62,842 bases of DNA, taken from IMG/VR virus record IMGVR_UViG_3300045988_149506. One strand, written 5' to 3'. The notes below the pieces were generated by a model. That model searched no databases. It was not told the origin of the DNA and saw only the letters and a list, made by a program, of their open reading frames with translations. The position numbers were made by a program, and so were the translations under genes. Numbering within the stretch: the stretch's first letter is position 1; each line of letters starts with the position of its first letter. The stretch comes from a virus. This document shows, one piece after another, positions 1 through 62,842 of this stretch.

Positions 1-99
1 ACTATACTTCTGACTATCTAGAAACCAACGATTTACGCTATTTCATTAAATATCAAGCAATTATAAAAATATGCTTTCTAATTTCCAAACCAAATTCAT
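1..99. repeat. Terminal direct repeat, left copy (identical to 62744-62842)
   Basis: Base-by-base reading: the first 99 nt of the window equal the last 99 nt. This means either a circular or terminally redundant assembly overlap, or attL/attR. Confidence 0.95.
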
Positions 100-175
100 T
101 TTTACTTGATTTCCAGATATTTTTACGTTTCTTTCGAAACAATCTATAATTTAATCTATATTACCTAAAATAATT

Positions 176-1075
176 CTACTTATATACATTATACTCTATC
201 AAAAGATGATGGCTTTCGCCACTACTATCTGTATAGAGCAATTCTATTGTTATCTCGTAACCATTCTCCCCTAAAGTCACATACATATAACTGCCGGGTA
301 GAACATTTTCATAGCGCACAAAGCTACTCCATCTGTAATAGCTTCGGTCAGAAAGTTCTATCTTCTTCCCTAATTCGAAGTTATTTACTGTCATATCGAA
401 GTTAGTCTCTGTCTTTTCTCTATTACCCTTTTCAAAGGCATAACAAGAGAAGAAGGCAATGCCATCCTTAACATTAAACTCAGCCCATTTGCCATATACA
501 TAGGAAACGCCATCGCTGGTGAAGTCATAGCTGTAACTAGCTTTATTCTGCCAATCTTCTGCTGGCAGATAATCGCTATCACCTAACTTTCCTTCATACT
601 CAACATCCAGTTTATCCTTGCCATGACTACCGCTAGAATAGAGAAGATGAATGGCAACGCTTATACGGTCTCCCTTTCTTGAAAGAATATAATAGCTGCC
701 AGGCTCTATTTTAGAGCTTCCACCCTCAAAGGAATAAGTCTGTCTGCCATCATTGAACGTTATGCCAGAATCATACTTATCGGTTGTCAAATCAACTTTC
801 TCTCCATATATGTAGTTAACACAACTAAGATATAAACTCTTACCTGGATGCTCAGAGTTCTCCAAAGCCAAGTTTACCCCAAAGTACTTATCGTTTGATG
901 GAGCAGGTCTAGCAGGATCCGTACACCATGAATAACAAACGTCATACCTAGTATCATTCCAGGAAACAACATTTGTTTCCTCATCTGCATCATTCAAGCT
1001 TTCCTTGCTGCATGAACAAAGAAGGCACACGATGAGCATTAACATCAATTTCAAACTATTCTCTTTCATTTTCAT
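176..1075 (-). CDS. Predicted surface or periplasmic lipoprotein with an internal duplication (lysogeny-module accessory gene)
   Basis: N-terminal signal peptide with lipobox (LLCSC). Two similar halves end in PGSYYILSRKGDRISVAIHLLYSSGSHG and PGSYMYVTLGENGYEITIELLYTDSSGESH. It shares the strand of the integrase and repressor. Confidence 0.7.
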   Translation of the reverse strand: MKMKENSLKLMLMLIVCLLCSCSKESLNDADEETNVVSWNDTRYDVCYSWCTDPARPAPSNDKYFGVNLALENSEHPGKSLYLSCVNYIYGEKVDLTTDKYDSGITFNDGRQTYSFEGGSSKIEPGSYYILSRKGDRISVAIHLLYSSGSHGKDKLDVEYEGKLGDSDYLPAEDWQNKASYSYDFTSDGVSYVYGKWAEFNVKDGIAFFSCYAFEKGNREKTETNFDMTVNNFELGKKIELSDRSYYRWSSFVRYENVLPGSYMYVTLGENGYEITIELLYTDSSGESHHLLIEYNVYK

Positions 1076-1081
1076 TCATAT

Positions 1082-2443
1082 TTAATGATTATACGCACGC
1101 CTAAAACCTTCCTGAATAGCTTCAGCAATTTCAAACTTATAGCCTTTTCCCTTGGCGTTAATCTTCACCAGGTCATAGTGCCTATCAAATGGCAGATGAT
1201 AAATCTTTTGACCTGTATTATGATTCACATTGCACTTGATGGCCGGAAACCTGTCCATGGGCAATCGTCTTACTTTAATGCCTAGCAAATTGACACATTT
1301 GATAGCTTCAGGAGACAAGTCACAAGTGACATAAAGCCATGGCTCTACTTCCACCCCTTTGATTTTATCTTCATTGTCCAACTTCCATTGAACAAAAGAG
1401 CCATATAATTGAAAAACTACATTTTCTCTTATCTGGCTATGTTCACTCCAATTTTTACATTGAACTATCAGAATCTTTCCTGTCTTTTGATGCGTTGCTA
1501 TAATATCACGACCACCATCTTCCAGTTTTTTATTTAAGCCTTCCTGAATAATGTCGTAACCTTCATTATAAAGCCTGTAGGCACAATATATCTCATAATT
1601 GCGTCCCTTCTCCCAGTCTGTCCATCTAGAACTATCTGAAATGTAGCGATTCACTGCCAACTGCTCCCTGCCTTGTTCTGTCATCTGAGAATACTCATCA
1701 TCAGATAACCAATTTCTAATATTACACCTCTTCTCTTCTTCATGCATATAATTGATATAAGCAACATCATCCTTAAATTTACTCAATTCAGGATATATAG
1801 AAAGAAGATACTCAAACTTATATTGATATTTAAACAAAGAAGCAAGCTCCTCTACATTAGAATCAACATACATGTTCTCGTGTTCCAAAGCATGAGCACG
1901 AAGATGGGCAACATAATCAAATGGATTCTTTGCATTAATCATCTGATAAAAATCATCTATCTTCTGTTCCAGATTGTTAATGTCAGATTTGGCGCATTCA
2001 TACTTATCGAATAGTTCACGATAAATATATTCCACTTCATCAAGCTCTTTCTTTAGCTTGGCATTCAAATCCTGCAATTCATTTTTTTCAAAGTTCAATC
2101 CATGGACAACAGCTTTCTGATTAGATAAATCTACAGTCTGCTTGTTTATCACCTTAAGCTTTGATTCAACATCTGATTCCAGTTGCTTTATCAAATCCAC
2201 CTGCCTGGCATTCAAATCTGCTAATACAGATTTCTCCTTCTTAATCTTTTGCAATTCTTCTCCTTGCTTGGTAAAATCAGCTTTCCATCTTTCTATCTGA
2301 TTTCGAAGCATATTAATAGTACTATTGAAGTATGTCATATCAGCAACAGGTTCATTTTTTTGGAATTTCCCCAGTAACAATACAACAATAACAACAACAC
2401 ATAGAACTATTATAAGCAACAATACGCCATCCATTTCACTCAA
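1082..2443 (-). CDS. Membrane-anchored coiled-coil protein with a C-terminal Mrr-type (PD-(D/E)xK) restriction-endonuclease-like domain
   Basis: N-terminal TM helix (VLLLIIVLCVVVIVVLLL) and about 150 aa of heptad-rich coiled coil. Nuclease core is GGRDIIATHQKTGKILIVQCKNW...VVFQLYGS. Terminal motif is IYHLPFDRHYD...AEAIQEGFRRA. Confidence 0.65.
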   Translation of the reverse strand: MSEMDGVLLLIIVLCVVVIVVLLLGKFQKNEPVADMTYFNSTINMLRNQIERWKADFTKQGEELQKIKKEKSVLADLNARQVDLIKQLESDVESKLKVINKQTVDLSNQKAVVHGLNFEKNELQDLNAKLKKELDEVEYIYRELFDKYECAKSDINNLEQKIDDFYQMINAKNPFDYVAHLRAHALEHENMYVDSNVEELASLFKYQYKFEYLLSIYPELSKFKDDVAYINYMHEEEKRCNIRNWLSDDEYSQMTEQGREQLAVNRYISDSSRWTDWEKGRNYEIYCAYRLYNEGYDIIQEGLNKKLEDGGRDIIATHQKTGKILIVQCKNWSEHSQIRENVVFQLYGSFVQWKLDNEDKIKGVEVEPWLYVTCDLSPEAIKCVNLLGIKVRRLPMDRFPAIKCNVNHNTGQKIYHLPFDRHYDLVKINAKGKGYKFEIAEAIQEGFRRAYNH

Positions 2444-2452
2444 ACAGTTTTA

Positions 2453-2788
2453 CTATCCTACATGTACCTGGCTTCTAGCAGAAAGACCATGAATCTCCCT
2501 CAGCACCTTATTCTCAGCCCTAAGAGCAATCACCTCTCGTTCCAACTCGTTCATGTCAACCACATTACTATTATTATTAGCCAAAGATGGAGCTTTCTTC
2601 TCTGAACCGAAAAATTCAGCAACATCAACACCAAGAACTTCGGCAAGATTTTCAACCGTGCTAACTTTCACATCAGCACCATTAAGAAGGTTATCCAGTG
2701 TAGTTCTGCTAACCTTCATCCTAGAAGCAATATCAATTTTGCTCAGTTTACTGGACGTTATAATGTCCACTATTCTCTGCACATTCAT
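2453..2788 (-). CDS. XRE/cI-type helix-turn-helix transcriptional repressor
   Basis: HTH segment LSKIDIASRMKVSRTTLDNLLNG...VENLAEVLGV. The gene is divergent from the plus-strand early operon. Confidence 0.8.
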   Translation of the reverse strand: MNVQRIVDIITSSKLSKIDIASRMKVSRTTLDNLLNGADVKVSTVENLAEVLGVDVAEFFGSEKKAPSLANNNSNVVDMNELEREVIALRAENKVLREIHGLSARSQVHVG

Positions 2789-2873
2789 ACTAAAATCCTT
2801 TAAAAGTTCAACAAAGTGGGTTAATTAATATTAATATCGCCCACTATATTATACATATATAAAAAGTTTATTG

Positions 2874-2881
2874 TACTTTTG
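2874..2881 (+). promoter_or_regulatory. Bacteroidetes-type -7 box (TACTTTTG) for the early rightward operon
   Basis: Matches TAnnTTTG about 50 nt upstream of the ATG at 2934, inside the repressor/early divergent region. An inverted repeat GTGGG...CCCAC lies at about 2816-2844. Confidence 0.4.
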
Positions 2882-2933
2882 CACCGTAAAGTTAGTAAAT
2901 AAATAAATAAGTACCAAATAAAATTGAAGAAAA

Positions 2934-3335
2934 ATGAAAAAAGATAGCAAAAAATCTCACGATGCACCATTAAGGCTGTTCGTCTGTCCTTTTCACACTG
3001 CGCTTACAGCAGGATGGAAAGACCGTGAAGGAAACCTACATGACGGTCAACCTATATGGCATGGAATGGAGGTCAGAATGGGTAGAGACGATGAGGAATA
3101 CATCAACCTAGCCAAAGTCTGGCACCAAGGAAAAGAACTTCCAAAAAGCAACAACGAGGATTGCCTCCTTGATTACGCTGACGGCATGACTACAGAAGTC
3201 GGTCATACATATACAGACCCAGATGGCAGTCGTGGATGGCTCACAGATTCTGGAGCACATCTATTCGAAGAAATCGGTCAATGGGCATACCTCAAAGATA
3301 TTGTTCCTATCAAATTAAAGAAAGGAGGCAAATAA
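2934..3335 (+). CDS. Hypothetical early protein
   Basis: First ORF of the rightward operon. Its C-terminal W-x3-KDIVPI-x-L motif is shared with the product of 10775-11242. Confidence 0.7.
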   Translation: MKKDSKKSHDAPLRLFVCPFHTALTAGWKDREGNLHDGQPIWHGMEVRMGRDDEEYINLAKVWHQGKELPKSNNEDCLLDYADGMTTEVGHTYTDPDGSRGWLTDSGAHLFEEIGQWAYLKDIVPIKLKKGGK

Positions 3336-4294: not shown

Positions 4295-4309
4295 TAATTC
4301 ATCATCAAT

Positions 4310-4501: not shown

Positions 4502-4513
4502 AACAAAATAGTC

Positions 4514-4813: not shown

Positions 4814-4901
4814 GTAATTTTACTTTTAGAGAATAGACATAAGCTAACATTGCAAACAAGAAAAGCTCGCTGTGAAGCGAAACTTATCGTTGAAACATTC
4901 A

Positions 4902-26561: not shown

Positions 26562-29330
26562 TTAAACTTCTGTATAACTGTACGTTTTATCCAAAAATGC
26601 CAATCTGTTCGTTAACCAAACAGAAACTCGTTTTACTGAATTATAAAAACCACAATAGTATGGTCTGTTACTATAAGCCGAAGATAAAGGTGGCACATCG
26701 GTTAATGTGGTTGTTGCCTTAAAGGTATAGCCCCTGTAGATACAAGTATCACCTTCATTGTAAATTTTCTCTGCATTGTAATTATCTTCTTTACTAGTAT
26801 AATCAACTATTGCCCATCCGCTATTAAGATTTGGATTTCTGTAAGATGGAGTGTCAGGATATAGTTTTATTTCGTCCTCCATATTCTCGTAACCAATGTT
26901 ATTAAGCCATTTTTCTAGCAAATTTATAATATTGTCAACAGAGAATATGTTTGAATCACGAAGCTGTTTATACCTAGCCTTTATCTCGTCTGCATAAAGG
27001 AGTTCAAGACCAAAAACATTTTCAACTCCTAATATGGTATTTTTGTCACTATTTGGTATGACAAATGTACCATTCCAATGTGCTCCTAATATACTGTCAA
27101 CATCATATAGAGTAGGTGTCCAATGCAGCCCGTCCCAAGTACACCAAATCCAATTTTTTCTGAAACCATCTAAATGATAAATTACTTGTGAAATAACAAA
27201 GTAATCAATGAAGGCATCAATAATAAAGTACTTTTCAAAAGTTTCTTTTGTGTTACTTTCAGTCAAGGCAGCTTTTACACCAGACAATCTAAGCAAGTAA
27301 TCTTTCACCTTCTTACTATTTTTATCTGTTTCAGAAAGTTCCTTCGGATTATCTCCGTCATATTTGTTACCATCAATATCAATGAGAGACTTTGGATTTC
27401 TGATTTCAAATTGTGTCCAATCAACAGTTCCACCAAACAAGGTACTATTACTTATTACACCATCAAGTATGATATTCTCAGGTGTTTTCTTATCTGCGTG
27501 ATATATCTCTTTTGATTTTTTGAGATTCCACGCATAAACACCCATATTTTTCTCCTCTTTGGTTTTGGTGTTAACCCATGTTATAACAATAGGAAAACCA
27601 TCAGGATGGCATTTTGCTCCAGTGTAGAAGTCTCGATTAACTTTACCGTTTCCAGTATAAGGGCTATATACATCAGACAACAGCTCATAAGGATAACGTT
27701 TGCCTACTGCTCTTGTTTGATAAACCTGCTCCATCAGCCAATATCCAACAATACATTGTCCACGGAATATGTCAATGAAATATTTCTTTAGATGAAAGCT
27801 GTCCTGTGCAGGAAAATCACCAAACTTGATTTTTGAATCATCATTGATGTCAATAGCCATATTTTTTACATAGTATGACATAGATGAAGAACCTTGTGCA
27901 TTCAAGATTACAGGCTTACGGAAATAATTTCCATCCTTATCATTGTACTCTATCTCAGCTTCTATATCATCCTGCTTTGTTGTAGGCAACTTTGGGGCAT
28001 AAAGCCTTACTTGTGCAGCAACTCTAGGAATGGGTAATTCTACATAGATGTTCTTGCTGAAATCAGATGGGTTATCCGTCTTGATACCAGCAGACTTGAA
28101 AGCATCATTTACTTCTTTTGCTGCATCCTCTGATAAATCAATGTGATTAACAGAAATCTTATGTTCATGACGTGTGCCTTCTGAATCTCTGTAACCAAGA
28201 ACCTTTCCTTTTGAATCTTCTGTAATCTCTGTTCTTCCCTCTACATCTTCAAAGCTGGCATTTGCATCAGCAACATCAGCATTAATAAGAGATTTCCCCT
28301 CTTCTTTATCAACCTTAGCATCAATAGTCTCAGATTTCAAGTTATGAGAATAGTGACTACCATCATTGTAAGTTCCTGAAAGAACCCTTCCATCTGCATC
28401 TTTCTCTATTGCAAGATACTCAGGACTCTCCTGCATAGAGAAGACATCGAGCAGTTCTTTGAGATTGGTATCTATTGTACCTACCTTCTCCTGCAATGAT
28501 GCGAGGTCTGATTGAAGCTGAGAGATAACTTGCTTCAAGGCATTGACAGCATGGATTTCGCCAATGATTTGTCCGTCTCTTCTGATACCAAGAACTACTT
28601 TATCGTCAGTAGTAAGCCAGGCAGCAAAGAACTCTTCATTCTGAATGACATGATACATTTCATTGAGAGGATAATATGGCTTGCCAGTATCTCGGTAAAT
28701 GCCATAGAGAGCTCTATCCTCTAAATCAACTACAGCCCAAAGGAACTCTTCATTCTCGATTACTCTAAATGGAGTGTCTTGAATTTCACCAGCTTCATCC
28801 TTGATAGTTGTCTTATCTAAGATGCCATTGATGGTATTAATTGACCCTAACAAGTCTGTTTTATCCTGCTGGCACTGAGTGATAATCTCCTGCAACTTGG
28901 TTCTGATAGGTGCAGGAATACCCTTGCCCCACTCAATGGAACCATCAAGCTGAATACCAAAAAGAAAACGGTCTTCTGCATCAACAATACAATGCAAGAA
29001 CTCAGGAGACTCAATCTCCCTGAAAGGAGTCTTGATAGTCTTTCCCTCTTTATTCTTAATTTCTGTGTTTTCTGCCAACTTGTCAATCCGACTACCAGCA
29101 TTATATGCGCCAAGGGCATTAGCCACAATAATCCACTTGTCTGTGTTGATGGCATATACCTTGCCATCGTCACGTTCCTCTGCTGGCGGATTGCCAACAT
29201 TATCATCGGCAACACTTTGGAAAGTACTGCCGAACATAGTCACCTGATTGTCTCTGTAGTATGAAGTTTCACCATCATACTCACCTCTGAGCACAGGTAA
29301 GCTACCTATGATTGTTTGTATTTCTGCCAT
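26562..29330 (-). CDS. Tail fibre or spike protein with N-terminal ~40-aa repeats and a CotH-like C-terminal domain
   Basis: Repeats are TPFREIESPEFLHCIVDAEDRFLFGIQLDG, TPFRVIENEEFLWAVVDLEDRALYGIYRDTG, YHVIQNEEFFAAWLTTDDKVVLGIRRDG and ESPEYLAIEKDADGRVLSGTYNDG. The C-terminal IDAFIDYFVISQVIYHLDGFRKNWIWCTWDGLHWTPTLYDVDSILG resembles the CotH kinase-fold core. Confidence 0.55.
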   Translation of the reverse strand: MAEIQTIIGSLPVLRGEYDGETSYYRDNQVTMFGSTFQSVADDNVGNPPAEERDDGKVYAINTDKWIIVANALGAYNAGSRIDKLAENTEIKNKEGKTIKTPFREIESPEFLHCIVDAEDRFLFGIQLDGSIEWGKGIPAPIRTKLQEIITQCQQDKTDLLGSINTINGILDKTTIKDEAGEIQDTPFRVIENEEFLWAVVDLEDRALYGIYRDTGKPYYPLNEMYHVIQNEEFFAAWLTTDDKVVLGIRRDGQIIGEIHAVNALKQVISQLQSDLASLQEKVGTIDTNLKELLDVFSMQESPEYLAIEKDADGRVLSGTYNDGSHYSHNLKSETIDAKVDKEEGKSLINADVADANASFEDVEGRTEITEDSKGKVLGYRDSEGTRHEHKISVNHIDLSEDAAKEVNDAFKSAGIKTDNPSDFSKNIYVELPIPRVAAQVRLYAPKLPTTKQDDIEAEIEYNDKDGNYFRKPVILNAQGSSSMSYYVKNMAIDINDDSKIKFGDFPAQDSFHLKKYFIDIFRGQCIVGYWLMEQVYQTRAVGKRYPYELLSDVYSPYTGNGKVNRDFYTGAKCHPDGFPIVITWVNTKTKEEKNMGVYAWNLKKSKEIYHADKKTPENIILDGVISNSTLFGGTVDWTQFEIRNPKSLIDIDGNKYDGDNPKELSETDKNSKKVKDYLLRLSGVKAALTESNTKETFEKYFIIDAFIDYFVISQVIYHLDGFRKNWIWCTWDGLHWTPTLYDVDSILGAHWNGTFVIPNSDKNTILGVENVFGLELLYADEIKARYKQLRDSNIFSVDNIINLLEKWLNNIGYENMEDEIKLYPDTPSYRNPNLNSGWAIVDYTSKEDNYNAEKIYNEGDTCIYRGYTFKATTTLTDVPPLSSAYSNRPYYCGFYNSVKRVSVWLTNRLAFLDKTYSYTEV

Positions 29331-38742: not shown

Positions 38743-40800
38743 TTATGTGCCCGATGATGGCAAAGTTGCCAAGTCATTTACACCATCGCTTGCATCTTTC
38801 AGGTGTGTTGCTGGCGTACCTGTTTGCTGTTGTCCAGCTCCTGCTGTAGGTATTTCGCCATTCGCTTGCTGTTGCGCTTGCATCGCCTGTAGTTTCTCTA
38901 GCTGTTCCTTGAAGTACTTCTTCATTCGGCTTGTACCAGGGAATTGTCCTACGGTCAGCATAGTATATGGGTCCATCTTACCGCTAACCATCATCTGCCA
39001 AGCCATATCGTTATTAGCATTTCTGATAAGTGGGCTGTAAGCGCCCAAGTCGATTGAAACATCAAGGTCCATATCCCTCATGGTCTCCGGATTGAAATGT
39101 GTCTCGAAATCGTCCCCTGTCAGTTTCACGCTGTCCGCTGAGGTACAAAATTCCTGAATGAGGTACAGCTTCTTCTTGGCGATTCTCACCTTGAAGTTAT
39201 TGAAGCTCTCCACAAAATCTTGTATTGTGGTAGAAGAACTTTCCCTTTCCAGTTGGTATTGCTTACCGCTAGTGTTGCGATGAACGCCTTGCAGAGCACC
39301 CTGCACGCCTGTACCCTCACTTGCCATAGTTTTGGCGAAGTTAACCATGAAGTCAACTCCTGCCGGAATACTCTTGTTGACCAAAGTCTGCGGTGGCTTG
39401 CCTCCGTTGGCTGAGTTCCACAAGATGATGCTATCCGTCTTCACATAGTTCGCTTGCATTTCATCGATACTTTGTTTTTCGCTCAGAGCATTCTCATCCA
39501 CAAGCATCGTACCCTTTGCACCATTGGCAACAATGAAGTTTATCATCATCATATAGTGGTTCAAGGTGCGTTGATTATTCTCAGCACGCATCGAAAAACT
39601 TCTTACCTCGCCATTCAGACAAGGGTATGCCACGAAGGTATATGGCATGATGGAAGTTCTGAAACCGTCTCTCAGAACATAGTAAGGCGATTCTCTCGCA
39701 TCCAGCAGATAGCCATTCGGAGTTAGGTATCTTCTGTACCAATAGGTCTCAACCTCATCCTTCATTTCGATGGTCTTAAGCTCTGATGGGTCCACATAAT
39801 AGATAGGCTCACCGTTCTCATCGAGCACAGGCAGACCGTTCTCGTCCTTCATGATGTTGGCTTCCTCTAGCTTCCGCTTCTTCTCCTCGTAGAAAGCTCG
39901 TTGGTCAGGAGAGGCATATCCGCTAGTTCCTGCATCCCAGTCATGCACCCAGATGGCTGGTCTAGTCTCCTTCGTCCATATCTCCAATACCCTGTACTTG
40001 CCGATTACCGAAGAATGGGTGAAATCGTCTATCCCTGCATACTGCGCTTCACCATTCGGGTGATAAGTCTGCTCAGGAGCGAAATGATGCTGTGTCTGTA
40101 GATATATCTCGCTCAGTTTGTCCACCTCAGCCTTGCTTCCATCGGTGAAGGTGGCGATTATCTCTCGCCAAGTCAAATCGTGAGCCTCAGCGATAAATTC
40201 TATGTCGCTCAGGTCATACTTGAAGAAAGGTGGCAACGCTATCTTAAAGATGTCCACCATGTAGTCAAAGATGCCATTCTTGCCATCTTTCCTGCCATAG
40301 TAGGTTTTCATGCCCACGAAGGCGAAGACACAGAAGGCATAAAACATTCTGGCATCTAGCTCCTGCCTGTCGTTCAAGTTGTCGTTCTGACGAAGGTATT
40401 CATTGAGGAAATTGATATAGTCCTCCTCGTTGGGGTCAACGGCACTGCAAGAGGCTGTACTGCGCTGCTGGCGCACAAGTCCTACGAGAGAAAGCAGCTT
40501 GTCGCCTATCACATCATATTCCAGTATAGGCATACCCTTCATTTCCATATACTGACGGATGCTTATCTTTCTGCCGTTCCACTCTATCAGTTCTTCCAGC
40601 TGTCTGCCCATCACGAAGTCCTGCGCTCGCTTCCACTTCTTTCTCAGCTCTGCGCCATCATAGAAGTATTGGCAAGCCCATTCTATCAGCCGAAGGTTGC
40701 TGTCCGTCTGGGCAAACCGCTCCCTGCTCACTCCCTCCAGGGAGTCAGGTCCAGGCTCGGCATAGTTCGAAATATCATTTATAACACGATTATCTGGCAT
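38743..40800 (-). CDS. Putative portal protein
   Basis: 685 aa, adjacent to the terminase, with a Gln-rich C-terminal tail. The call rests on size and position. Confidence 0.6.
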   Translation of the reverse strand: MPDNRVINDISNYAEPGPDSLEGVSRERFAQTDSNLRLIEWACQYFYDGAELRKKWKRAQDFVMGRQLEELIEWNGRKISIRQYMEMKGMPILEYDVIGDKLLSLVGLVRQQRSTASCSAVDPNEEDYINFLNEYLRQNDNLNDRQELDARMFYAFCVFAFVGMKTYYGRKDGKNGIFDYMVDIFKIALPPFFKYDLSDIEFIAEAHDLTWREIIATFTDGSKAEVDKLSEIYLQTQHHFAPEQTYHPNGEAQYAGIDDFTHSSVIGKYRVLEIWTKETRPAIWVHDWDAGTSGYASPDQRAFYEEKKRKLEEANIMKDENGLPVLDENGEPIYYVDPSELKTIEMKDEVETYWYRRYLTPNGYLLDARESPYYVLRDGFRTSIMPYTFVAYPCLNGEVRSFSMRAENNQRTLNHYMMMINFIVANGAKGTMLVDENALSEKQSIDEMQANYVKTDSIILWNSANGGKPPQTLVNKSIPAGVDFMVNFAKTMASEGTGVQGALQGVHRNTSGKQYQLERESSSTTIQDFVESFNNFKVRIAKKKLYLIQEFCTSADSVKLTGDDFETHFNPETMRDMDLDVSIDLGAYSPLIRNANNDMAWQMMVSGKMDPYTMLTVGQFPGTSRMKKYFKEQLEKLQAMQAQQQANGEIPTAGAGQQQTGTPATHLKDASDGVNDLATLPSSGT

Positions 40801-41559: not shown

Positions 41560-44500
41560 CTACTCCATTCCATTCAATGTTTTCAGCAGCTCCTTTCTGG
41601 TCTTGCGAATCTCCACCATTTTGGCGGCATCGTTCTGACCATCCATTTGCTTCTTGGCTTTGTTCATCTTCTTCTTGGCAGCAGAGATAGCCTTTCTAGC
41701 TGCAAACAGTCGCTTGTTGGTCTTGCTGTTCTTGAAGGCGTTAGCCTTCGCCTTATCCACATCCTTCAAACGCTGATACTCATCGTAGGTTTCCATCGTT
41801 CCGTTCCATACAGCCTGTATTCTCCAGTCCTCGGTCACATCCTCCGATTTCGCCTTCATCAAGTACTTGTTTTCAGCCTTTTCCATCTCCTTCAAGTCTT
41901 CATCACCGTTCAGATAGCCCTGCACCATGTCCAGAGCCTCCTTCTGGGTGAAAGCCTTGTACTCACTCTGCGAGAGGAATTTCTTCATCTTCTGGCGCAT
42001 CTTCTTCTTTTCGGTGATACTCTTAGCCACATCGAAGCGTTCGCTAGCCACCTGTAGAGAGGTAACACCATCTTGCATTTCAGATGTCTCCAACGCCTTC
42101 ACGCTACCGATGGCTGCTTTTATCTGCTCCTCTGGGGCAATGCCATTGCGCTCACAGCTCTGGTAGGTCATTACCACGCCTTCCATGTCACCGCTCAGGA
42201 TGAAGTCCTTGAAGTAGCTCTGAGCCTTCCAAGGAGAGAAGCCCTTTGAGGATGGGAAGAAGAAATCCACTGCCTTAAACTCCTTGTTCTCTTGGCTCGG
42301 TATCAAGAAAGGTGCCCAGTAGAGCGCATCCTTGTAGAGCAGACCGATGGTCTTGCCATACTTTCTTTGTATCTCTTGGTCGGCATGGCTGGCTTGGAAA
42401 TCGCTCAGATAGTTTATATCGTCCAAGGTCATTCTCACCATCGGGTTCGCCTTACCTATCATTCGCTGCACCATAGGGCCAGGGAACTCTAGTTCACCCT
42501 TATGGTTGAAGAGATATTCAGGCACCTCTCGGAACTGCTTACCATGTCGGATATACATTTCCGTTCCGTCCGCATATCTGCCCATAAAGATTTTGCTCTG
42601 TTGTCCTAGGCTGTTTCCTCTCATCAAGTAGTCATACCACATCATGCCATCAGGATAAGCCAGTTCGTAAGGGCTACGGTAGTTAGGGTTGGTCTTCCTC
42701 AACTCCTCAGCCTTCTTGCGTTCCTTCTCCTCGTCCAGGGCACGGAAGGCAGCATTGATGCCATTAGCAATAGCCTCATAGAACAACATGAAGCCCAAGC
42801 CGTAGCAGAGAAGCGAAGAAATCTGTCTAGCCCTTCTGCCCTCATCTTCTGGAGTAAGTTTCTTATGATAAAGCTTCTTGTAATACTCCTTGAAGTTCTC
42901 AAAGGTCGCCTCATTCCAGACAGAGCCATATCCTGTAAGAGCCAAGAAGTGGCGAGTAGTGGAGGCATTCCAGTCTGGCGAAAGAAGAACTCGTCCGGCA
43001 TAGCGCAAGGTTCGATGGCTGGCACCAAGCACATCCCAGTGCTGACCGCCAAACATATCGTTCACAAACTGACCGTCTTCATCCAAAGCCCGGCTCAGTT
43101 CCTCCTCAGTCCATCCCTTCTTCTTGGCACGCTCCTTGGTCTTGTCTGCCCTCATCCGGTAGGTAGCAAGTTTCAGTCCGTCATGAAGGAAATCCCACAA
43201 GGCTCTATCCATACCCTTGTTGATGAGCGAAAGCATCTGCGAAGCCACCTTCAAAGGCATAGTAGCCAAAGCCACCGTTCCGGAAATTCCATTTCCGTCC
43301 TTCAACTTCTCCTGCACCTTCATCATTGCATCGCGCATATTGTCGAACATGTTCTGCACATCCGCTGCTGCATAGTCGTTGGTCGCTCCAAACTTCACCA
43401 AGTGGGTTGCTGCCTCTTGGAAGTCCTGCGGATTGGCAAAGCATGGCAACTGATGATTCTTCATCGTGTCGGCAAAGATGTACTTCATAAAGTTGGCAAG
43501 AGCCTTCTTGGGTCCATACTCAACCATGTTCTGCACCATATACACCTCGGTCAGTGCTCCTGCATGGAATCCACTGAAGCCAAGCTCCAACTTCTTCATG
43601 CTCGATGCAGTTGTATCGAAGAACTTCCAGAAAGGAGTTGACTGATAGGTATCGAATACAACTCCGAATCTATCTCCTGCACTTGCCTCCGAGTAGAGCA
43701 CCTTATCCTTGCCAGTGATTGGGTTCTTCACTTTCATCTGCTTAGGCGATACATTATATACCCATACAGGACCCACACCCGGAATCTCGAAGTATTTGTA
43801 TTGCTCCAAGTTGAAAGGTGCAACCGAAGAAAGCAGTGGGTCGGAAGAAATTATCTCTCCGTCCTCGTTGCGCTCTATTACGTTCAGTCCGCTCACCTCT
43901 TGGAGCATCGTCTTGTTAGCCCAAGCCTCGATGTTGCTTCTGCTGTAGTAAGCCATCATCTTAGTGATGTCCGTGGTCTTAGGCACAAGTCCTACCTCCA
44001 AGCCTTCCATGATGGTGTTAATCTGGCGTGGCTTCTCGTTCGGGCTTTTGGTTCGCTGTCTGTTCTCCACATACATGGCATAGGCATTCTTATCAGACTT
44101 CTCCTTATCCCAAAGGTGATTTACATAGTCCACGGTGAAACCAGTGTCTGCCTTCAAGGTGTTGTTGTCCTTCAACCAGTCGAAGGTATAGTTATACCAG
44201 TCTCTGATGGAATCCAACACACTCTTCATCGGCTCGCTCAGGTTCTTGTAGTCCACACCGTAAGGAGTGATACGCTTCAAGATGATAGGCAAAACATTCT
44301 TATTCAAGATGTCCGTACCATCGATAGGCACAAATCCAGGTTCTTTCTCATGGTTGCCATTGATGATGTCAGCCATCTTGCTAGCCACCTCGGATGCGCC
44401 CTTCATATCATCGAAGACTTCTACCTCTTTTCCATCCTTCAGCTCCGTGTGCTTTTTGGCAGTCACCTCGGCAAGTTGTGGGCGAAGCTCCTGAATAGCC

Positions 44501-47500
44501 TCAACATCGTTAGGAGTGATATGGATATGTCCCTCACCAAACACACCAGTGGAGTTCAGCTTGTAGGCGATTTCTCTGATGCGTCTAGGTGCCTCTATTA
44601 TATAAGGTATAGCCTCAGCTAGCTTTTCAGCCTTGTTTGGCTTGCCTTGGTAGTCGGAAAGCAACTTGTCGAAAGCACCGCTCTCAGCCATTTTCTCGAT
44701 GCTGTTTTTCACATCATTGATATAGATGGCATCGTCTGCGCTTGCCTCCTCCATGTTCTTTCTACGATGGATAACCGCATGTTTCACTGTTCTAGCAGCT
44801 CCCTCCTTGCTCACATCGGTACTAGTTACCTCTGCCAAGTCCTGCATCACTCGCTGCTCCAAGGCATCAGCCTCCGGATTGGTCTCGGCTGGGTATATCT
44901 TCCCTTCATACAAGTCAAGGTCGGCATTGTTCTGCTCGTTCAGTTCGTGTCTAGTCAGCCAGTCCTCGTACTTCTGCCTAGCCTCATCCTGCTTCTGCTT
45001 CTCAAACGAGAACATATCAGGCATCGGGTTTTCCTTGTCTGCCATGGCATCGTTCCACTTCTCCCATTCCTTGTAACGAGGGAAAAACTCCTCATCCGTC
45101 TCGCCTTCCTTGCGTTCCGGCTTAATCGGCATTTCGTCACCCTGCAGATGATGGCTTTCACGCCATTCCTTGTTAAGACGTTCCCATTCCTTCTTGCCCT
45201 CAACATCCTTGTCGAAGTCATAGAACATTGGTGGCTCGGGGTCTTCTGTGTCCTCTCGGGCAATCTTCCACTTTTCCCACTCTCTTTTACGTTTAATATA
45301 TGCGATTTCGCCCTCGCCCTTCTTTCGATGTGGCTTGCCCTTACCTGCACCATCAGATAGCGCATCCTTGATTTCGGCATTGCTAGCCTGTGTCATCATA
45401 GCCTCCTGCTGTGTCTTCGGCATATTGTCCCAAACGTGAAGAGCCTTACCAGCCTTCATCAGGTAATATCTCAAATCCTTATCATTGAGCAAACCAGGAA
45501 CACGGATGCCCAATTTCTTAAGCATCTTGATGAGATAATGCTTTATCTTAGTCCAAAGAGAAAAGTCCTCCGCTGTAGTCGGACCCTCCTCGGCAAGATG
45601 GGCGATATACTCCTGCGTGCCGATATTGATGCGGTCAGGATTGTTCCAACCTGGATCATACTGATAAGCGAAGTCGAGAATCTTGCCCCTCGTCTTCTTA
45701 TCTACAGACTTATATACGAAGTCCGCAAACTTTCTCACGCCCTGCTCACCACCAAGCAGCACTTCCATACCCTCATGTCCTATCTTCTCATGGAAGACGG
45801 TTCTCTGAGCCTCATCGGCATCAGCACAGTTAGGAAGGTACACATGCACTGTATGAGTGCTAGGGTCATACCAACCTCTTGCACCTTGCTCCACAGCTTC
45901 TTTGTACTCATCAGGCACTTCCGAAGCATTGGTGTAAGATGTAACCTCAGCACCACCCAATACGTTAGCAACGTTCTTCACCTTATCGGCAGAATTTTTC
46001 ATCTCCTGCGATTCAAAGGTGCGGATGGATGGCATCGACAATCGCAAAGGATTCTTGTGGTTCGGTATATAGGTATGCTGAATCATGGTGTCGAAGAAGT
46101 GCAAATCTCCGTTCTCATCCTTGATTACATTCCTTGGTTCGGCATCCCACAAGTCAAACTCGCCATTCGTCCAGCCCAAATCTACCTCATCAGCACTAAT
46201 CTGAATCATATCCAGCTTAAATCCATGGTCGGTCAGATACTGAGTGATTTCCTCTCTTGTTGGAGTTGTACCCTTCAAGTATGGTTGTTCCATTACAATA
46301 CAAGGGTCTCCCTTTTGATTGTAGGCGAAACCAAGAGGAGTATATTTGTCCTCTGGCATAAACTGGTTATGGGCATTGATGCGGTCTATGAACTCATTAA
46401 TGCGGAATAAGCTATCAGTCATGGTGAAATCATTGAGTTTGATAACTTTAGTATCATCATATTTGGCATGATACACAAAGTTCTCCTCACCATGACCAAT
46501 AGAATCACCCACTATTTTTTTGAGTTCTTCGTCTGGGATGAACGAAAGATTTTTCTTAGCTGCTCGAATGACATACCCAAGTACGGGTCCTCTATCCCAA
46601 GTGCCTTGTTGTTTCTCAGCTGTTGCTGTTTGATTTCTTCGAAAGTTATCGGCTGCTGCGCCCAACGTTTCATTAACTCTTCTTTGCGCCTGTGCTCGGC
46701 TTCCAATTCTTCTGGTGATAACATCTTTATTTGGATTTTTGTTCATACTATCACCATTTTCATCAGCAACATCTGTGCCATTGTCACCAAGAGAGAACTT
46801 CAAGATGCTTCGATACCCCTTTTCTCTATGATTCTTACCATACACCTTGGAATAATGCACACCATCATTCTCACCTCCTACGATTCTGCCTCTGTTATCG
46901 GTCTCAACAAACGGCACACCTCGCTTCTCCAACTCTTTTCTCAGACTTGGAGTAACCACATTCGAAGGCATAGTGATATTCTTGCCCTTGAACATATCAT
47001 TAACAATAACATCAGCCACCTCGCTATCAGGCACAATACGCACAGGCTTATCCCAACGAGAAAGCACCACTTTGCGTTTGCCTGTCAGCTGTCCTTGGAT
47101 GATACCAGCCTTCCACTCTACTTCACCCACGGCATCCTTGGCTTTATCAGCCTTGTAGCCACTGGTTAACTCGCTCTTTGGCACCTCAACCTCTACGGTT
47201 ACGATGTTAGGGCGATTCTGAGCCTCGCTAAACTGGTCATTCAGTGGAGTGCGAGAAGTATGAAGGTAAGGATTGTAAGCAGCCTTAAGCGATTTACCAT
47301 TACCCTTGTTTAGGGTAAACATACCCTTATCATCAGCAAGTTCTGGTCGCTCATCTGCCTGTTCCCACTTACCGAGTTCGATAGGTTCCACAAACTTGCC
47401 CTTCACCTTTGCAGCCATCGGTGGATAGAGTTTTCCATCATCACCTACCTGCATGGCACGATAAACCTTCACCGTGTCTTCCTTATCCAGCTTCTTGATG

Positions 47501-50500
47501 GTCTCTGGGTCTTTCACGATGCTATAGCTAGCATCGCTCCCATTCATCACGATTTGCTCATCACGGTTCACATCCTCAGTTTCAGATGCCAATGAATTTC
47601 TGCGCTCCTCGTCCGTCATACCCAAACGCTTCTCCACGTTACGAGCCTCAACCTCACCTGCCAACTTTCTATATTCTTGGTAAGAATCAAAGTCTGTACG
47701 TTGGAACCTATCCAAACGGAAACGCTTAATGGCATCATCCATACTTCTGTCTGCATAGCCACGTGCGAAGTAGTTGAATCCCTTAATTCGGGTTTCCTTG
47801 TCAGGAATGAACTCAGGCATATCCATGTCCTTATATTCCTGAATAAGGGCTTTCTCTACAGCAGATTGGTTATACTCACCACCCATTTCCTTGGCTTTCT
47901 CTTCCAATTCAAAGGCATAGGAACGTGCCTTCCATTCAACCTTAGCAGCATTGAAATCCCTCTCCACCTGCTCGGGTGTGCCACCATGCGCAAACCCCTC
48001 TTCACGCTGAATTACGTGCTGAATTTCATGATTCAGAATGCTATTCAGATACTTTAATTCATCCGCATGAATGGTAATAGTCTTTGTTTGTGGATTGTAT
48101 TCCCCATTTGAAGGCATGTCATTCATTACTGCATCAGTATGGATTTTAATATTTTTCAACTGAGGATAAGCCTCAAAAAGCTTTGGTGCATCCACAGCAT
48201 CTTCCAACTTACCATCAGTCCATAGCATATCCTCTTCGAAACGTTTAACGATATTTCCACCACCTACATCGATGGTGTCCTTTATCTTGGCATCAGGCAT
48301 TTCGTATCTCCACTTGCCATCCACGCCTTTCTCCCAACCTGTAGCCATCTTGATAACCTTGGCATCCTTCTTCTCCTCTTCCATCTGCTTAGCCACATCC
48401 AGGTTATCCATGCGGATAGTTTGCTCATCAGCCTTATCAGCCTCAGCAGCTCCCTTCTCTCCAGCAAACATGAAGCGAATATCGCTCTTGCGAGAATTGA
48501 AGCGCTTAGAAGGAGGAATAACGTCACCCTCATCATCATAGGTAACAAGGTCGTTCAACTTTCTATTATTCTTGGCATTCTTGTATTTATACTCCTTGCC
48601 ATCATCAAAGCCAAACTCGTTTGCGTCATTACCATCCCACCACAGTTGAGTAGCTGGAACTTCGTCTTCAATGATACGATATTTGCCTTCCAGTCGGTTC
48701 GTTCCGTGCATTTCGGCATATTTCTTAGAAGGAGTAACCCAGTCACCATTACGCAACTTTCCTTCCTTCACAGAAGTTGGAACTGCACGATAAACCTTTA
48801 CCTTAACATCCTTCTCGCCATTCTTAATGGCATCAATAGCCGTATTGATGGCTTTCACAGATTCCAATCCATGAGGAGTGTTCTGCGAATAACGCTCAGG
48901 GTGAGAGAAGTAATCATCCGGCTGAGGAGTGTACCCCAAAGCCATATCCTCCAGGTTTACATCTGAGCCACTGGATTCCCAATCGTCACGTCTCGCCTTG
49001 TCGCTTTCATATCCAGGGTTTCCCGGTGCAGCCCATGCACCTACGCCCTGATATGCGCTTTCGGTATCGTCATATCCCTTGCGTCTGGCAGCCTCATCAA
49101 GCATTTCCCTGGCTGTAGCATCATCACCCTTAGAAAGAGCATCCATATACTGCTTGTCAAGTTTATCTTCAGGAATCAAAGAAAGTTCCTCCAAGTGCTT
49201 TTTGCGCTTGGCTTCCTCTTCCTCTGCTCTCTTTCTAGCAGCTTCCATAGCATTACGCTCTGCTTCAACCTGCTTTCTTCGTTCCTCAATCATTGCATCA
49301 AGGTCACCAAAATTCACCTTCAAGGCTTCATTTATAGGTTTGGTGTACTTAACAACATCCTTAAATGAGAAAATGTTACCTTCATTTACCTGCATCAAGT
49401 GACGCTTAATATTGGCTCTGGCACGTGCAGCCTCAGCAGTAGAACCCTTCTTAACAGCATTGGCATACATTGCCACATCTGCCTCATCTACCCCAAATTG
49501 CTGAGATACAGCCTTAATTTTATCCTCCACAGATAAATTTCCACCATTTTCCTTGGTGATTTCAAAGGAATTGCGTATCTTTGCATCGCTATGAGGATTC
49601 AGGACGCTATCCTTTCCGCTTGGGTTATTTGCGGATGGAGTTAATGCCGAACCTTGATTCTCGCCCAAGGAATTAGAATCGCCTCTGAAACGATTCCATA
49701 GCACTTTTGATTCTGTCAATTCTTTCACAACTTTCGAAGGCTCTATTTGGTGTGCGCTAATTGCAACCTCATCTTCGCCCTGTTTCACTGTGATAGACTC
49801 ATAGTTAAGAATCTTTGTTCCATCAGCCTTCTTGAAAGATTTAATAAACAAATACTTTGTTTGGCGTTCTGCGCCTTCTTTAGGTGCAGACTTCTCCAAG
49901 ATAACATCAGGACGTTCCAAGGTAGGTTTCAACAAACCAAATCGTTTGATTCGGTCTTCTCTTCCAGCCTTCTTATATTGATTCTCACCCAGTTTGATAC
50001 TGCCAATAGGAGTAGAGACACGCCCATCTTTGCCAAATTCTTTCAGCCAATTCTCCTCCGTATGCTCCAAGACTCTCTCTTGTTCCGCATTATCTTCCAT
50101 TTGCTGGCGCAAGGAAATGGCATCGTCTTTGGTAAGGCGAGATTTCACATTACGTGGGTCCACTCCTTGCGCCAAATCTCTCAGCACAAGGTTACGAATA
50201 TCCTCCAAGGTCATTTTCTTGATGTCCTCAGGCTTCCACTTCGTAAATGTATCAAGAGTCCAATACCAGAACTTCTTCAACCAATCCTTCAATCGGTTGA
50301 TGATAGTAAGCTCTTTAGCAGTATCTAACGGATTCTCCTTAATGGCATCATTTGCCATCTGCTCCAGGATGGCAGCACCGTCCTCGCCAGTCAAACGAGC
50401 AAAAGCCTCATCGCAAATCTGCTCATCGCTCAGATGCTTGTAGTTAGGGTCCTCCTTCAAGTCGGCAAATAGCTGGGTCTGCATGATGAGTTTATCACCA

Positions 50501-53500
50501 TGCTCAATAAGCTCCGGATTCATGTTCTTGGCAGCAGTGCGCCACAAATGCTGATACTCATGGATAGGAGTATTAGGATTCAGATGCTCCTGATTCAGTA
50601 CAATCTCCTTGCCATCGGTATAGCCATACACCGTGCCCTTTCCCTTCGCAAACTTGTTATGGTCAACAATCTGCATATTCTCTGGCTTAAAGATAACATA
50701 GTTAGTGTCACCTTCCTCTGCACCACCAAAATTACGACCAGCCTTGTACTTGATGCCAGTGTAGCCTAAAGAAGAGAGGAATTTACTTGCAGCCTTATCG
50801 TCTTTATAGGTTGCATCATCGCTCTTCATCCTTATAGACAAAGAATCGTACAAATCTTTCCCATCAAGGAACTTGTATCTCTTATCCAACTCTGGGTCAA
50901 TAGGACGCTTACCTAGTTGCTCCAACTGTTTGTTTATTTTGTTCAGCAATCTTGCTCCAACCTTGGCATCCCAATTCAAGTAGTTCTTGCCATTATCATC
51001 AGGGATATTCACCTCATAGAGAGAAGTCTTAGGAGTTTCAACCGACAAATCTAAGTCAAGCAGTTTCTGCATTACATCAATCTGCTTTTTATAGAAATCA
51101 TTGTTATCTTCCTTGTATATCTCTTGATTTTCTTTTATGGAGTTCTTTAGCTTTTGTTTAGCCTTATCTACCCCCATTCTATCAACATTCATAAGGAAGT
51201 TGTCTGCCTTAGAAACTCCATCCATGCCAACAATATCACTAAGAGTTGCCGACATGTGCCGCCAATCCAGCTTTTCCCCATTATAGACAAAATACTTATC
51301 TTTTCTACCGCTCTCAGCATAGTATTTTCCTATTTCAGGAGAAGAGGTTACATATCCTCCCCATCCAAAGCTCTGTGTACCTTCCCCCTCTCCCATGTGG
51401 CCAAAGTCAAACTCCGTGAAGTCAGCACCGCTACCATGATAAGTACGCAAGAATCTCACTCCAGGCTGTACGATAGCCTTCAACTGTCTGTCCAAATCCT
51501 TATATTTCGCAAACAAGGAATCAAGCTTATCTTGATATTTTTCAAAGGATTTATTCCTGCAATCATTCCAAACATCATCAGGAATATCGTTTTCAGAAGC
51601 CAGTCCATGCTCATCCATGTACTCCTTCATCAACTGATTTTGATACTTCACACGTTCCTGCCCGGTTGAATTATAAGCATCCTCAGTCTCCTTAATCTGC
51701 TTTTTCAACTCATTCTTCTTACTGGTCTGTTCATCAATCTTATAAGGGTCAAACTCCGAAGGGAAAGAGCCAGTAAGCCCTGCTACATTGTCCTCAAAGC
51801 TCTTGTCGAGATTGAACACCTTGTAGTTTCCCCACATCAGCCTATTCAGGTAGGTACGTTCCTTTCTTGCCAGCTCCTGCTTCTGGTAGTACTCAGGCAT
51901 CTTATTCGGATTGCTCATATCCACCACGGCATACTGCGCCCATTTGTTTGGTCGCAACTCCTTGGCAAAGTTATAAGCATTCTCGGCAGCCTGCTTCTCC
52001 TCCGGAGTCTTGATTTTAAATCTCATCTCAGGATGATTCAGCAACATGGCAAGATTCAGATTATCCTGAGCCTCAGCCACCTTCTCCATCTCCTCGTTGC
52101 TTATCACCTTCACAGGTATTCCAGCCTTCTTAAGCATAGCAGAAACGGCATCAAAAGCCACCTTCTGCGCCTCCGTCATTTCAGATGGCTTCACCTCCTT
52201 TACATCGCGGTCAAACTTCGTCTGTTCCTTCTGTACAATGGCATAGTCAGCAAATGGCTTAGTCTTGCGGTCAGAAGCCTCTAACCACTTATCGAAGGTA
52301 GCCTTAGGCACAGCAGTAACCTTACCAAGTCCCTTCCAGTCCTTGGAATAGTTGGCAAGATAAGCCTCTGTAGCAGCCTCCTCAGAAGGATAGCCAAACA
52401 TCACCTTATGCTCGCCAAACTCACCAGTCTCTGGGTTCACCTGGTCAACAACATAAACGTTACCATCAAAAGAATCAAGGTCAGCAGCATCATTGATGAA
52501 CATATCGATATGGTCACCATCCACGCCAATCTTGCCCAAAATATAGCCATAAGTGTCGTGCATGGTCACGCTCCAAGGCTTGCCCTGCTCGTCCTTACCG
52601 CTACGTGTTGTACCCTTCGGTGTCTCTACAGTAAAGTCATAGCCACCGAAGGACAAATGTCCCTTCTTATAGTTACCTGCCTTCTTCTGAGCCTCAGAAG
52701 GGTTAGGCTCAGTCTCGGCAATGGCATTCTTTAAACGTTCTCCGAAGGATGCTTCTTGCGGTAGATGTGGAGTTCTATCAGCTGAGCCTTCGCCAGATGC
52801 CAAGCTGCTAATCTCTTGTCTCCCTTCGCCTGTGCTATTATGTAACGCTCCAGTCTCGGTCTCAGCAGATGCTTCTCTGCTACCACCTTCTTGGCGATTG
52901 CGATTTCCTTCATCAACTCCTCTCCGTGAAGAGTCGCTACCCAGGCTACTGCCTCCTCCATATCCTTCTTCATTGCTTCTGTCATCATAATCTGCTAATT
53001 CTGGTAAAATTGATTTGACATATTGTTTGTACTCTCGTTCACGATTCTCAATCTCCATCATGCGGTCATATTCCATACCAGCAATATGGTTAAGTTCGTT
53101 TTCTGACGGCAAAGGTACAGAATTATCTTCAAGATAAGCATAATAATCTGGATTTTCTGCCTGTCTTTCGATAATTTCACGCTCTTTCTGTGCCTCATAA
53201 TACTCTTCCTCGCTTGAAAGTTCCTCCTCTGCTGCAGCAATTCGGTTCATAAGTGCCACATTACGCATTTCCTTCACATTGTCGTAGGTCTTGAACATAT
53301 CCAGCAAGGTGTTTCTCACATCTTGGTCAGAATATCCCATATCCTGCAAGTTGATAGGAAGGTCATTGTACACTCTCACGGCAAAATCGTTAACAGACAT
53401 ACCAGTGCCTTTCTTGGCAATAAGATAATTGAACTTATTAGAATCATATCCCTTGCCAATACCAACCTTGAAATTACTCTTGCCCAACTCATATTGAAGA

Positions 53501-62743: not shown

Positions 62744-62842
62744 ACTATACTTCTGACTATCTAGAAACCAACGATTTACGCTATTTCATTAAATATCAAG
62801 CAATTATAAAAATATGCTTTCTAATTTCCAAACCAAATTCAT
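62744..62842. repeat. Terminal direct repeat, right copy (identical to 1-99)
   Basis: Identical 99 nt. It starts 77 nt beyond the integrase start codon. Confidence 0.95.

Follow-up and report, generated by a model that had tools for sequence, protein, structure and literature searches.

The 62,842-nucleotide stretch of viral DNA analysed here (IMG/VR virus record IMGVR_UViG_3300045988_149506; 'the window' denotes this whole stretch) encodes, at 1082..2443 on the minus strand, a protein that combines an N-terminal transmembrane (TM) helix, a long helical linker and a C-terminal module built around an Mrr-type PD-(D/E)xK nuclease core. It is a member of a large family that has no name as yet, and it is notable for the size of that family, for its invariant catalytic site and for the placement of its gene between repressor and integrase, which is conserved across phyla. 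By analogy with experimentally studied systems, our analysis suggests that the protein may be expressed from the prophage, anchored in the inner membrane and active in defence or exclusion, a reading to which we give a probability of roughly 0.5.

A prediction made earlier from the DNA letters (hereafter the original prediction) had proposed two open reading frames (ORFs) here, one of 299 amino acids (aa) for a lipoprotein (176..1075, minus strand) and one of 453 aa for the nuclease (1082..2443, minus strand), the latter with a TM anchor, a long helix and an Mrr-type core. Both ORFs are present and the proposed architecture holds up, with a TM helix at aa 6-25, a helix at aa 34-171 and an Mrr_cat match above the Pfam cut-off. 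The parts of the nuclease, with the basis for each, are as follows:

1082..2443, minus strand: membrane-anchored Mrr-type nuclease, 453 aa from a TTG at 2443 (ORF, Pfam, homologues, structure model)
2369..2428, minus strand: N-terminal TM helix, aa 6-25 (hydrophobicity of the sequence)
1931..2344, minus strand: linker, a long helix or coiled coil, aa 34-171, differing in length and sequence between members (AlphaFold2, coiled-coil-type matches)
1619..1930, minus strand: conserved, family-specific helical region, aa 172-275, NPFDYVAHLRAHALEH ... REQLAV.RY (invariant blocks in alignments)
1253..1618, minus strand: Mrr_cat PD-(D/E)xK nuclease core, aa 276-397 (Pfam, conservation, Foldseek)
1085..1252, minus strand: 'sunset'-like C-terminal tail, aa 398-453, FPAIKCN..KIYHLPFDRHYD..GKGYKF..AEAI.EGFRRA (conservation, NCBIfam NF051437)

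The assignment of the core is carried by both profiles and predicted structure. With Pfam Mrr_cat (PF04471) the protein reaches 28.5 bits over aa 280-351, where the cut-off is 21, and with Mrr_cat_2 it reaches 25.4 bits, where the cut-off is 22; together the two profiles span residues 280-398, and distant family members reach up to 49 bits with Mrr_cat. A first AlphaFold2 model, of the full-length protein and based on 23 close sequences, was poor (predicted local distance difference test (pLDDT) 64, with the tail below 35) and was replaced by a second, covering aa 175-453 and based on 122 diverse homologues, with a mean pLDDT of 87.4 and a predicted template modelling score of 0.76. Foldseek searches with the core of this second model recovered NucS/EndoMS (2vld, E = 3.2e-5) and AF1548 (1y88, E = 6.8e-5), as well as MspJI and Hjc, and, among viral models, unnamed phage 'restriction endonucleases'; at the level of the predicted structure, a restriction-endonuclease-like PD-(D/E)xK fold is thus confirmed. 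A PDB sequence search with the nuclease module gave chance-level matches only. The candidate catalytic residues are E284, D313, Q328-C329-K330 and E340. That homologues should keep such residues had been set out in the original prediction, and all of them are indeed invariant in alignments of 28 and of 122 sequences, the latter about 32-43% identical to the C-terminal module of the window protein. For the helical region upstream of the core (aa 172-275), by contrast with the core, no Pfam or PDB match and no matching structure in Foldseek were found. The Pfam domains DUF4041, GIY-YIG, RmuC (PF02646) and Mrr_N are all missing from the window nuclease (DUF4041 and Mrr_N being looked for down to E <= 1), and DUF4041 did not appear at E <= 0.01 in ten distant members.

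The short C-terminal tail (YHLPFD...GFRRA) that had been singled out in the original prediction is real and is the best-conserved part of the nuclease. Mean pairwise identity in the close family is 0.39 in the TM helix, 0.32 in the linker, 0.76 in the helical region and 0.73 in the core, and rises to 0.87 in the tail, where I402, K403, Y415, H416, P418, D420, Y423, G446, F447, R448, R449 and A450 are invariant in the sets of 28 and of 122 sequences. From profile matches the tail appears 'sunset'-like: of 28 family members, 22 match the NCBIfam 'sunset' profile NF051437, the strongest at E = 2.7e-5, whereas the window protein does no better than E = 0.083. A literature search on 'sunset domain' returned nothing relevant, and Foldseek matched no solved structure to aa 398-453. 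Its resemblance to sunset and to an Ada-like YH.P...Y motif makes the tail a candidate DNA-binding element. With so conserved a tail, the module might be envisioned as a non-catalytic tether that binds DNA at the membrane, either holding prophage or plasmid DNA there or sterically blocking entry like KwaB of Kiwa, and the Shield nuclease ShdA does recruit DNA to the cell periphery. We consider this very improbable, as the full catalytic set (E, D, QxK and E) is invariant over deep divergence, which would be unexpected for a pure binder.

By contrast with the C-terminal module, the part upstream of it is variable. The TM helix of the window protein has an acidic flank on its N side and a lysine-containing flank on its C side; the predicted topology, judged from sequence, is N-out/C-in. 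AlphaFold2 renders aa 34-171 as a single unbroken helix of ~138 aa (pLDDT about 74-88), and the only profile matches of this linker in Pfam and NCBIfam are of coiled-coil type. Among close relatives the N-terminal part spans 99-194 aa, the differences arising through clean deletions within the helix, and distant homologues align to the window nuclease only from about aa 200 onward. The anchor is nonetheless near-universal: in a crude hydropathy count of members of at least 340 aa, N-terminal TM-like segments occur in 227 of 248 (92%), with one segment in 139, two in 84 and more in 4, and the flank charges of the one-TM members favour C-in in 90 cases and the opposite in 28, with 21 ties. In several longer members (~640-730 aa; P0170, P0188, P0211 and P0238), the linker that joins the TM helix to the conserved module contains a SWIM zinc finger. 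The name 'competence protein ComGC', which close homologues carry in Joint Genome Institute annotations, comes solely from the hydrophobic helix at the N-terminus (NCBIfam ComGC, E = 0.58) and was rejected, as were matches of the nuclease to PHROG Rz-like spanin, SMC, Rad50 and LmuB, which are coiled-coil or TM noise.

The extent of the family emerged from a HMMER scan with residues 175-453 over 1.84 billion representative proteins, which yielded 1369 clusters (50% identity) when hits are cut at E <= 1e-3 and 514 when they are cut at E <= 1e-30. In every member the conserved module is C-terminal; most proteins measure 380-730 aa, and the few shorter entries are apparently truncated. Source labels name the members only 'restriction endonuclease', from Bacteroidia, Porphyromonadaceae, Bacteroides and metagenome-assembled genomes (MAGs) of Clostridia. 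The statement in the original prediction that this architecture could not be matched to a named system agrees with our PADLOC runs, which gave a weak RTasRmuC match to the TM helix and coiled coil (aa 5-107, E = 5.8e-4) and, for one distant member, a PDC-S02 match (E = 7.8e-5) that was dismissed since it covers the Mrr core only. Neither the first 3,000 bases of the window (1-3000, DNA similarity) nor the C-terminal module of the nuclease (tblastn) had any match among 50,697 GenBank phage records. No paper on the family or its position in lysogeny modules was found, which, given partial literature coverage, is weak evidence.

The genomic setting of the nuclease becomes apparent once the window is closed on itself. 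Its bases 1..99 are identical to bases 62744..62842, which makes the contig a phage genome that is closed into a circle (or terminally redundant), with a unique length of 62,743 bp. Because the contig is circular, the integrase adjoins the lipoprotein gene, and the claimed position of both genes between integrase and repressor, on the same strand, is true, but only on the circular map. On the minus strand, the co-oriented order is helix-turn-helix (HTH) repressor, nuclease (450 or 453 aa), lipoprotein, contig junction and integrase:

2453..2788, minus strand: CI-like HTH repressor, 111 aa (Pfam HTH_3, E = 5.8e-7; PHROG transcriptional regulator)
176..1075, minus strand: lipoprotein, 299 aa (ORF, homologue set)
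61200..62666, minus strand: tyrosine integrase, 488 aa (Pfam Phage_int_SAM_5; PHROG integrase, E = 6.8e-18)

Homologues of the nuclease begin at an ATG three codons inside the ORF (MDGVLL...), so its true start is probably at 2434 (450 aa). From the gaps of 9 bp between repressor and nuclease and 6 bp between nuclease and lipoprotein we infer co-expression with the repressor, whose gene is probably the first of the operon. Scans for sigma-70 promoters and terminators did no better than on shuffled sequence, no promoter being assigned, and the Bacteroidetes -7 motif TAnnTTTG is absent upstream of the repressor. GC content is 35.5% in the nuclease gene and 38.9% in the lipoprotein gene, below the genome value of 44.8%, and the lysogeny module as a whole is AT-richer than the rest; this low GC is moron-like and consistent with exchangeable cargo. 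The repressor has no S24 peptidase domain in Pfam, and lacking this self-cleavage domain it would have to be induced by another route; its C-terminal end is a leucine-zipper-like helix. A divergent ORF beyond it (2934..3335, plus strand, 133 aa) is kept in most related phages at 25-79% identity.

The position of the nuclease is conserved far beyond this phage. In all 18 loci of close relatives (57-92% identity), a repressor homologue (36-95% identical) lies directly upstream. Distant relatives were approached in two ways. First, nine proteins were looked up and their neighbours labelled with Pfam. The order repressor (HTH, often with an S24 peptidase), nuclease and integrase recurs with Pfam labels in L024/L025 (a Clostridia MAG, with host genes beyond), L028 and L029, and also in L021/L022, where the repressor-like upstream gene is without a Pfam label. 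A Porphyromonadaceae locus with host genes beyond, L023, has the integrase directly after the nuclease and unlabelled genes upstream; in L030/L031 a repressor-like HTH gene is near; in L026 the homologue sits in a prophage early region with the integrase not in view; and in L027 and L032/L033 the homologues are on or beside other mobile elements. Second, 62 IMG/VR loci with modules 35-43% identical gave 59 nuclease ORFs that fall into 30 clusters. With HTH and integrase profiles built iteratively from these loci, a co-oriented HTH-family gene was found no more than 2 kb upstream in 22 of the 30 clusters, compared with 6 of 30 for the downstream control, and an integrase downstream in 15 of 30 and upstream in none, the integrase count being a lower bound since many loci stop less than 2.5 kb downstream of the nuclease; 14 clusters combine the upstream HTH gene with the downstream integrase. 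The integrases beside the nuclease are of different types (Phage_int_SAM_5, Arm-DNA-bind_4/SAM_3 and Phage_int_M), and the replication modules differ too. What is conserved is the position between repressor and integrase, not the phage.

Members on Hymenobacter plasmids show that the family is not confined to prophages. Two of them (L019, 7626-8822; L020, 7470-8666), labelled 'restriction endonuclease', are on large non-mobilisable plasmids, where the nuclease homologue follows a conserved 415-aa hypothetical protein amid copper and arsenic resistance genes.

So strict a placement between repressor and integrase could also reflect a function in the phage life cycle, the nuclease being an XisH-like accessory to excision or integration beside the integrase, or else a degrader of host DNA after induction. 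Foldseek does match the core to XisH-family excision-controlling factors (2inb, E = 1.4e-4; 2okf, E = 9.5e-4), and no recognisable excisionase gene was noticed in the module. Such a role nevertheless appears improbable to us. A membrane anchor and a 20-nm helix are ill-suited to a recombination cofactor; the likeness to XisH comes down to the shared PD-(D/E)xK core, for which NucS, AF1548 and MspJI score better; and the nuclease occurs with unrelated integrase types and on plasmids, while being absent from one related phage (L035) despite a 93% identical repressor and a homologous integrase.

The lipoprotein, which had been paired with the nuclease as a two-gene cassette, is a distinct matter. 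Its description as a lipobox lipoprotein made of two duplicated halves is correct:

1010..1075, minus strand: signal peptide and lipobox L19-C20-S21-C22, mature N-terminus CSKESLNDADEE (homologue alignment)
593..874, minus strand: lipoprotein repeat 1, aa 68-161 (hhalign)
188..439, minus strand: lipoprotein repeat 2, aa 213-296 (hhalign)

The sequence here reads ...LLCS-C22-SKE. In 14 homologues S21, C22 and E25 never vary and S23 and K24 scarcely do; their lipoboxes end in S-C and are mostly L-S-S-C or L-C-S-C. The two halves align over 84 columns with an hhalign probability of 96.7% (E = 3.8e-10), where BLASTP gives only E = 6e-4. The protein and 13 homologues had no match in Pfam, NCBIfam, PHROG (E <= 0.01) or the PDB, a PDB search with the lipoprotein profile stayed at chance level and PADLOC returned nothing for it; so far as such searches reach, it is an orphan family. 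It numbers 19 homologues among 5.8 billion proteins, compared with >1275 for the nuclease.

Across the 18 close loci, the slot between nuclease and integrase is hypervariable. It holds the lipoprotein in nine; in others it is empty (L016, L017) or filled as follows:

L003 7363-8373 and L007 7363-8371: a 117-aa TM protein and a 208-aa secreted protein
L006 7325-8134: a remnant of the same
L011/L012 7309-8280: a secreted M48-like metallopeptidase directly downstream of the nuclease
L008 7498-8419: extra membrane proteins, including a 197-aa multi-TM protein; two other genes part the nuclease from the lipoprotein

The 117-aa TM protein ends in RYHKDRNCP...CGWCGK, a cysteine-containing relative of the sunset/Ada-like motif of the nuclease tail. 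The nuclease position itself can also be exchanged: L035, whose repressor is 93% identical to that of the window, carries there a 116-aa multi-TM protein (4561-4911) followed by a lipoprotein homologue, and L034, with the same repressor type, a small multi-TM protein of 266 aa (3831-4631), again with the lipoprotein present and the nuclease absent. These multi-TM proteins suggest alternative membrane-located exclusion functions. Between its repressor and integrase, this phage family therefore has at least two independent swap positions, occupied almost only by envelope proteins, and the lipoprotein is a separate, swappable cargo in the hypervariable slot beside the integrase. By analogy, it would most likely be an envelope-level exclusion factor comparable to Ltp, Llp or Cor.

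These patterns bear directly on the model of the original prediction, in which the lipoprotein senses envelope events and signals to the tethered nuclease, the two forming one envelope-spanning sensor-effector system. The genes do adjoin, with a 6-bp gap, and co-occur in half of the close loci (9/18). Yet the nuclease is found without the lipoprotein in at least seven close loci (L003, L006, L007, L011 and L012 with other cargo, L016 and L017 with none), the lipoprotein without the nuclease in L034 and L035, and no lipoprotein homologue (E <= 1e-3) in any of the distant loci inspected; the two are parted by other genes in L008, and their homologue counts (19 versus >1275) are very unequal. The obligate pair is thereby refuted. 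Nor does the nuclease have much of a periplasmic part with which to receive a signal, what reaches beyond the membrane amounting to a few residues in one-TM forms or a short loop in two-TM forms, and an 'envelope-coupled sensor' is thus not indicated. We regard this model as highly doubtful. What survives of the original prediction is the defence or exclusion role, which still offers the best account and now has experimentally studied analogues in SNIPE (PD-lambda-1) and Shield ShdA; the pair as one system does not.

Under the defence or exclusion reading, the nuclease would be co-transcribed with the repressor in lysogens, and its N-terminal helix would anchor it in the cytoplasmic membrane. 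The long variable helix would keep the C-terminal module (helical region, Mrr core and sunset-like tail) in the cytoplasm just under the membrane, so that anchoring separates the nuclease from the nucleoid and self DNA is protected by location. DNA crossing the membrane, that of a superinfecting phage or possibly that entering by conjugation or transformation, would be cut on entry, and the choice of entry machinery encountered would depend on the variable N-terminal region. More tentatively, and with less than even confidence, we propose that these proteins represent a second, independently evolved class of 'spatial self/non-self' nucleases (membrane-anchored, Mrr-type) that cut DNA as it enters the cell and give lysogens a SNIPE-like direct immunity, the hypervariable linker serving as a specificity adapter.

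Several observations weigh against these proposals. Homologues exist outside prophages, for instance on the Hymenobacter plasmids among metal-resistance genes and in loci beside a serine recombinase or relaxase; a defence-island context was not seen in the loci examined; and PADLOC finds no defence system for the nuclease module, either in the window protein or in 28 family members. The nuclease is dispensable, since the same-family phage L035 lacks the gene. The window phage has a P22-like portal protein, and SNIPE-like recognition of tape-measure proteins would not necessarily apply to the phages that this host meets. As for the supporting counts, the TM and charge analysis is a crude hydropathy count, and the HTH and integrase profiles could capture too many or too few genes.

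If the proposed class is real, the principle recently described for SNIPE, of telling foreign from self DNA by its location at the membrane during entry, would have evolved at least twice with unrelated nuclease folds, and many gut prophages would carry such a nuclease as a regular part of their lysogeny module. With >1300 clusters at 50% identity, these nucleases would form a large family of defence or exclusion genes in gut prophages that is unannotated and missed by PADLOC, and they would help to explain why lysogens of Bacteroidales and Clostridia resist superinfection and, possibly, transformation or conjugation. The variable N-terminal 'adapters' would then provide a natural series for studying how nucleases find the entry site.

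Elsewhere in the window, three further genes were characterized:

38743..40800, minus strand: P22-like portal protein (E = 2e-34), pointing to a podovirus-like particle
41560..58713, minus strand: ORF of 5717 aa of the 'polyvalent protein' type, with Pfam InPase (E = 4e-50), a PBECR2 nuclease, LPD23 and Kinase-PolyVal
26562..29330, minus strand: 922-aa protein with a CotH-kinase-like domain (E = 1.4e-7)

Giant multi-enzyme polyvalent proteins are thought to be co-delivered with DNA to counter host defences.

Among known systems, Mrr and other type IV restriction endonucleases share with the window nuclease a homologous catalytic core with D...QxK, and NCBI labels its relatives 'restriction endonuclease'. 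The window protein, however, lacks the winged-helix DNA-reading domain Mrr_N and has a TM anchor, coiled coil, helical region and tail instead; judged by its profile matches, its Mrr_cat domain is genuine, yet the protein as a whole falls outside the canonical Mrr enzymes. In genomic position it recalls the defence genes BstA and RexAB, which are driven by the same promoter as the repressor (PMC8585504): these too lie downstream of a prophage repressor, in a position kept across diverse prophages (PMC8585504). The proteins themselves are unrelated, BstA having a KilA-N domain, an abortive-infection mode of action and an aba self-immunity element, and RexB being an ion channel. The lipoprotein, for its part, can be likened to Ltp of the Streptococcus thermophilus phage TP-J34, a prophage lipoprotein with a repeated domain, encoded beside int, that blocks DNA injection (PMC3952083), and also to T5 Llp and phi80/N15 Cor. 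Ltp is likewise prophage-encoded, located beside the integrase in the lysogeny module and built from repeats, but Pfam, NCBIfam and PDB searches show no sequence similarity and the likeness is only positional and architectural, the host here being of Gram-negative type.

Shield ShdA of Pseudomonas is a membrane-bound RmuC (PD-(D/E)xK) DNase that defends alone (Shield I) and whose TM-less form could not be cloned (PMC10270631). Like the window nuclease, it combines an N-terminal TM helix with a nuclease of the PD-(D/E)xK superfamily and resides on mobile elements, and in ShdA the anchor appears to restrain toxicity. It differs in that the window protein has no Pfam RmuC domain, and in helical region, tail, taxa and genomic position. 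ShdA is a non-specific DNase, toxic when unanchored, that gives population-level immunity (PMC10270631), and its example raises the alternative that the window nuclease is an abortive-infection or otherwise toxic effector: an anchored non-specific DNase that infection, membrane perturbation or proteolysis would free or activate, degrading host and phage DNA alike. An Mrr-type core with no obvious sequence-reading domain would suit such an effector, and the M48-like metallopeptidase that follows the nuclease in L011 and L012 loosely recalls the ShdB peptidase partner. That peptidase, however, has a signal peptide, which would place it on the other side of the membrane; there is no conserved partner, the downstream slot being variable or empty; no cleavage site or sensor domain is evident; and SNIPE, the closest system in overall layout, gives direct defence. 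We hold an abortive mode of action to be rather unlikely, and favour defence or exclusion at the membrane, for which SNIPE is the nearest model.

SNIPE (PD-lambda-1) of Escherichia coli, discovered in the screen of PMC9519451 and described by Saxton et al. (bioRxiv 10.1101/2025.11.03.685801), has an N-out TM helix followed by an elongated helical part, DUF4041 and a GIY-YIG nuclease in the cytoplasm. It resides in the membrane constitutively and cuts lambda DNA while this is being injected, whereas without its TM helix it is toxic and nucleoid-bound (bioRxiv 10.1101/2025.11.03.685801). The N-terminal region of its homologues is poorly conserved and length-variable, with one TM helix in 59% and two in 7% (bioRxiv 10.1101/2025.11.03.685801). 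The window nuclease is, in the same way, a single polypeptide with an N-terminal TM helix, an elongated helix, a conserved middle domain and a C-terminal nuclease predicted to be cytoplasmic, and most homologues of either protein have one or two TM segments in an N-terminal region of variable length. For SNIPE, as we do here, membrane sequestration has been proposed to spare self DNA. Conversely, SNIPE has a GIY-YIG (T5orf172-type) nuclease where the window protein has an Mrr-type PD-(D/E)xK core, and the latter lacks DUF4041 and carries an extra sunset-like tail; the PADLOC PD-Lambda-1 model is matched neither by the window nuclease nor by the 28 family members, and the family of the window nuclease is found in prophage lysogeny modules of Bacteroidota and Clostridia. 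By this analogy the nuclease would work like SNIPE, while being non-homologous to it and not a member of that system.

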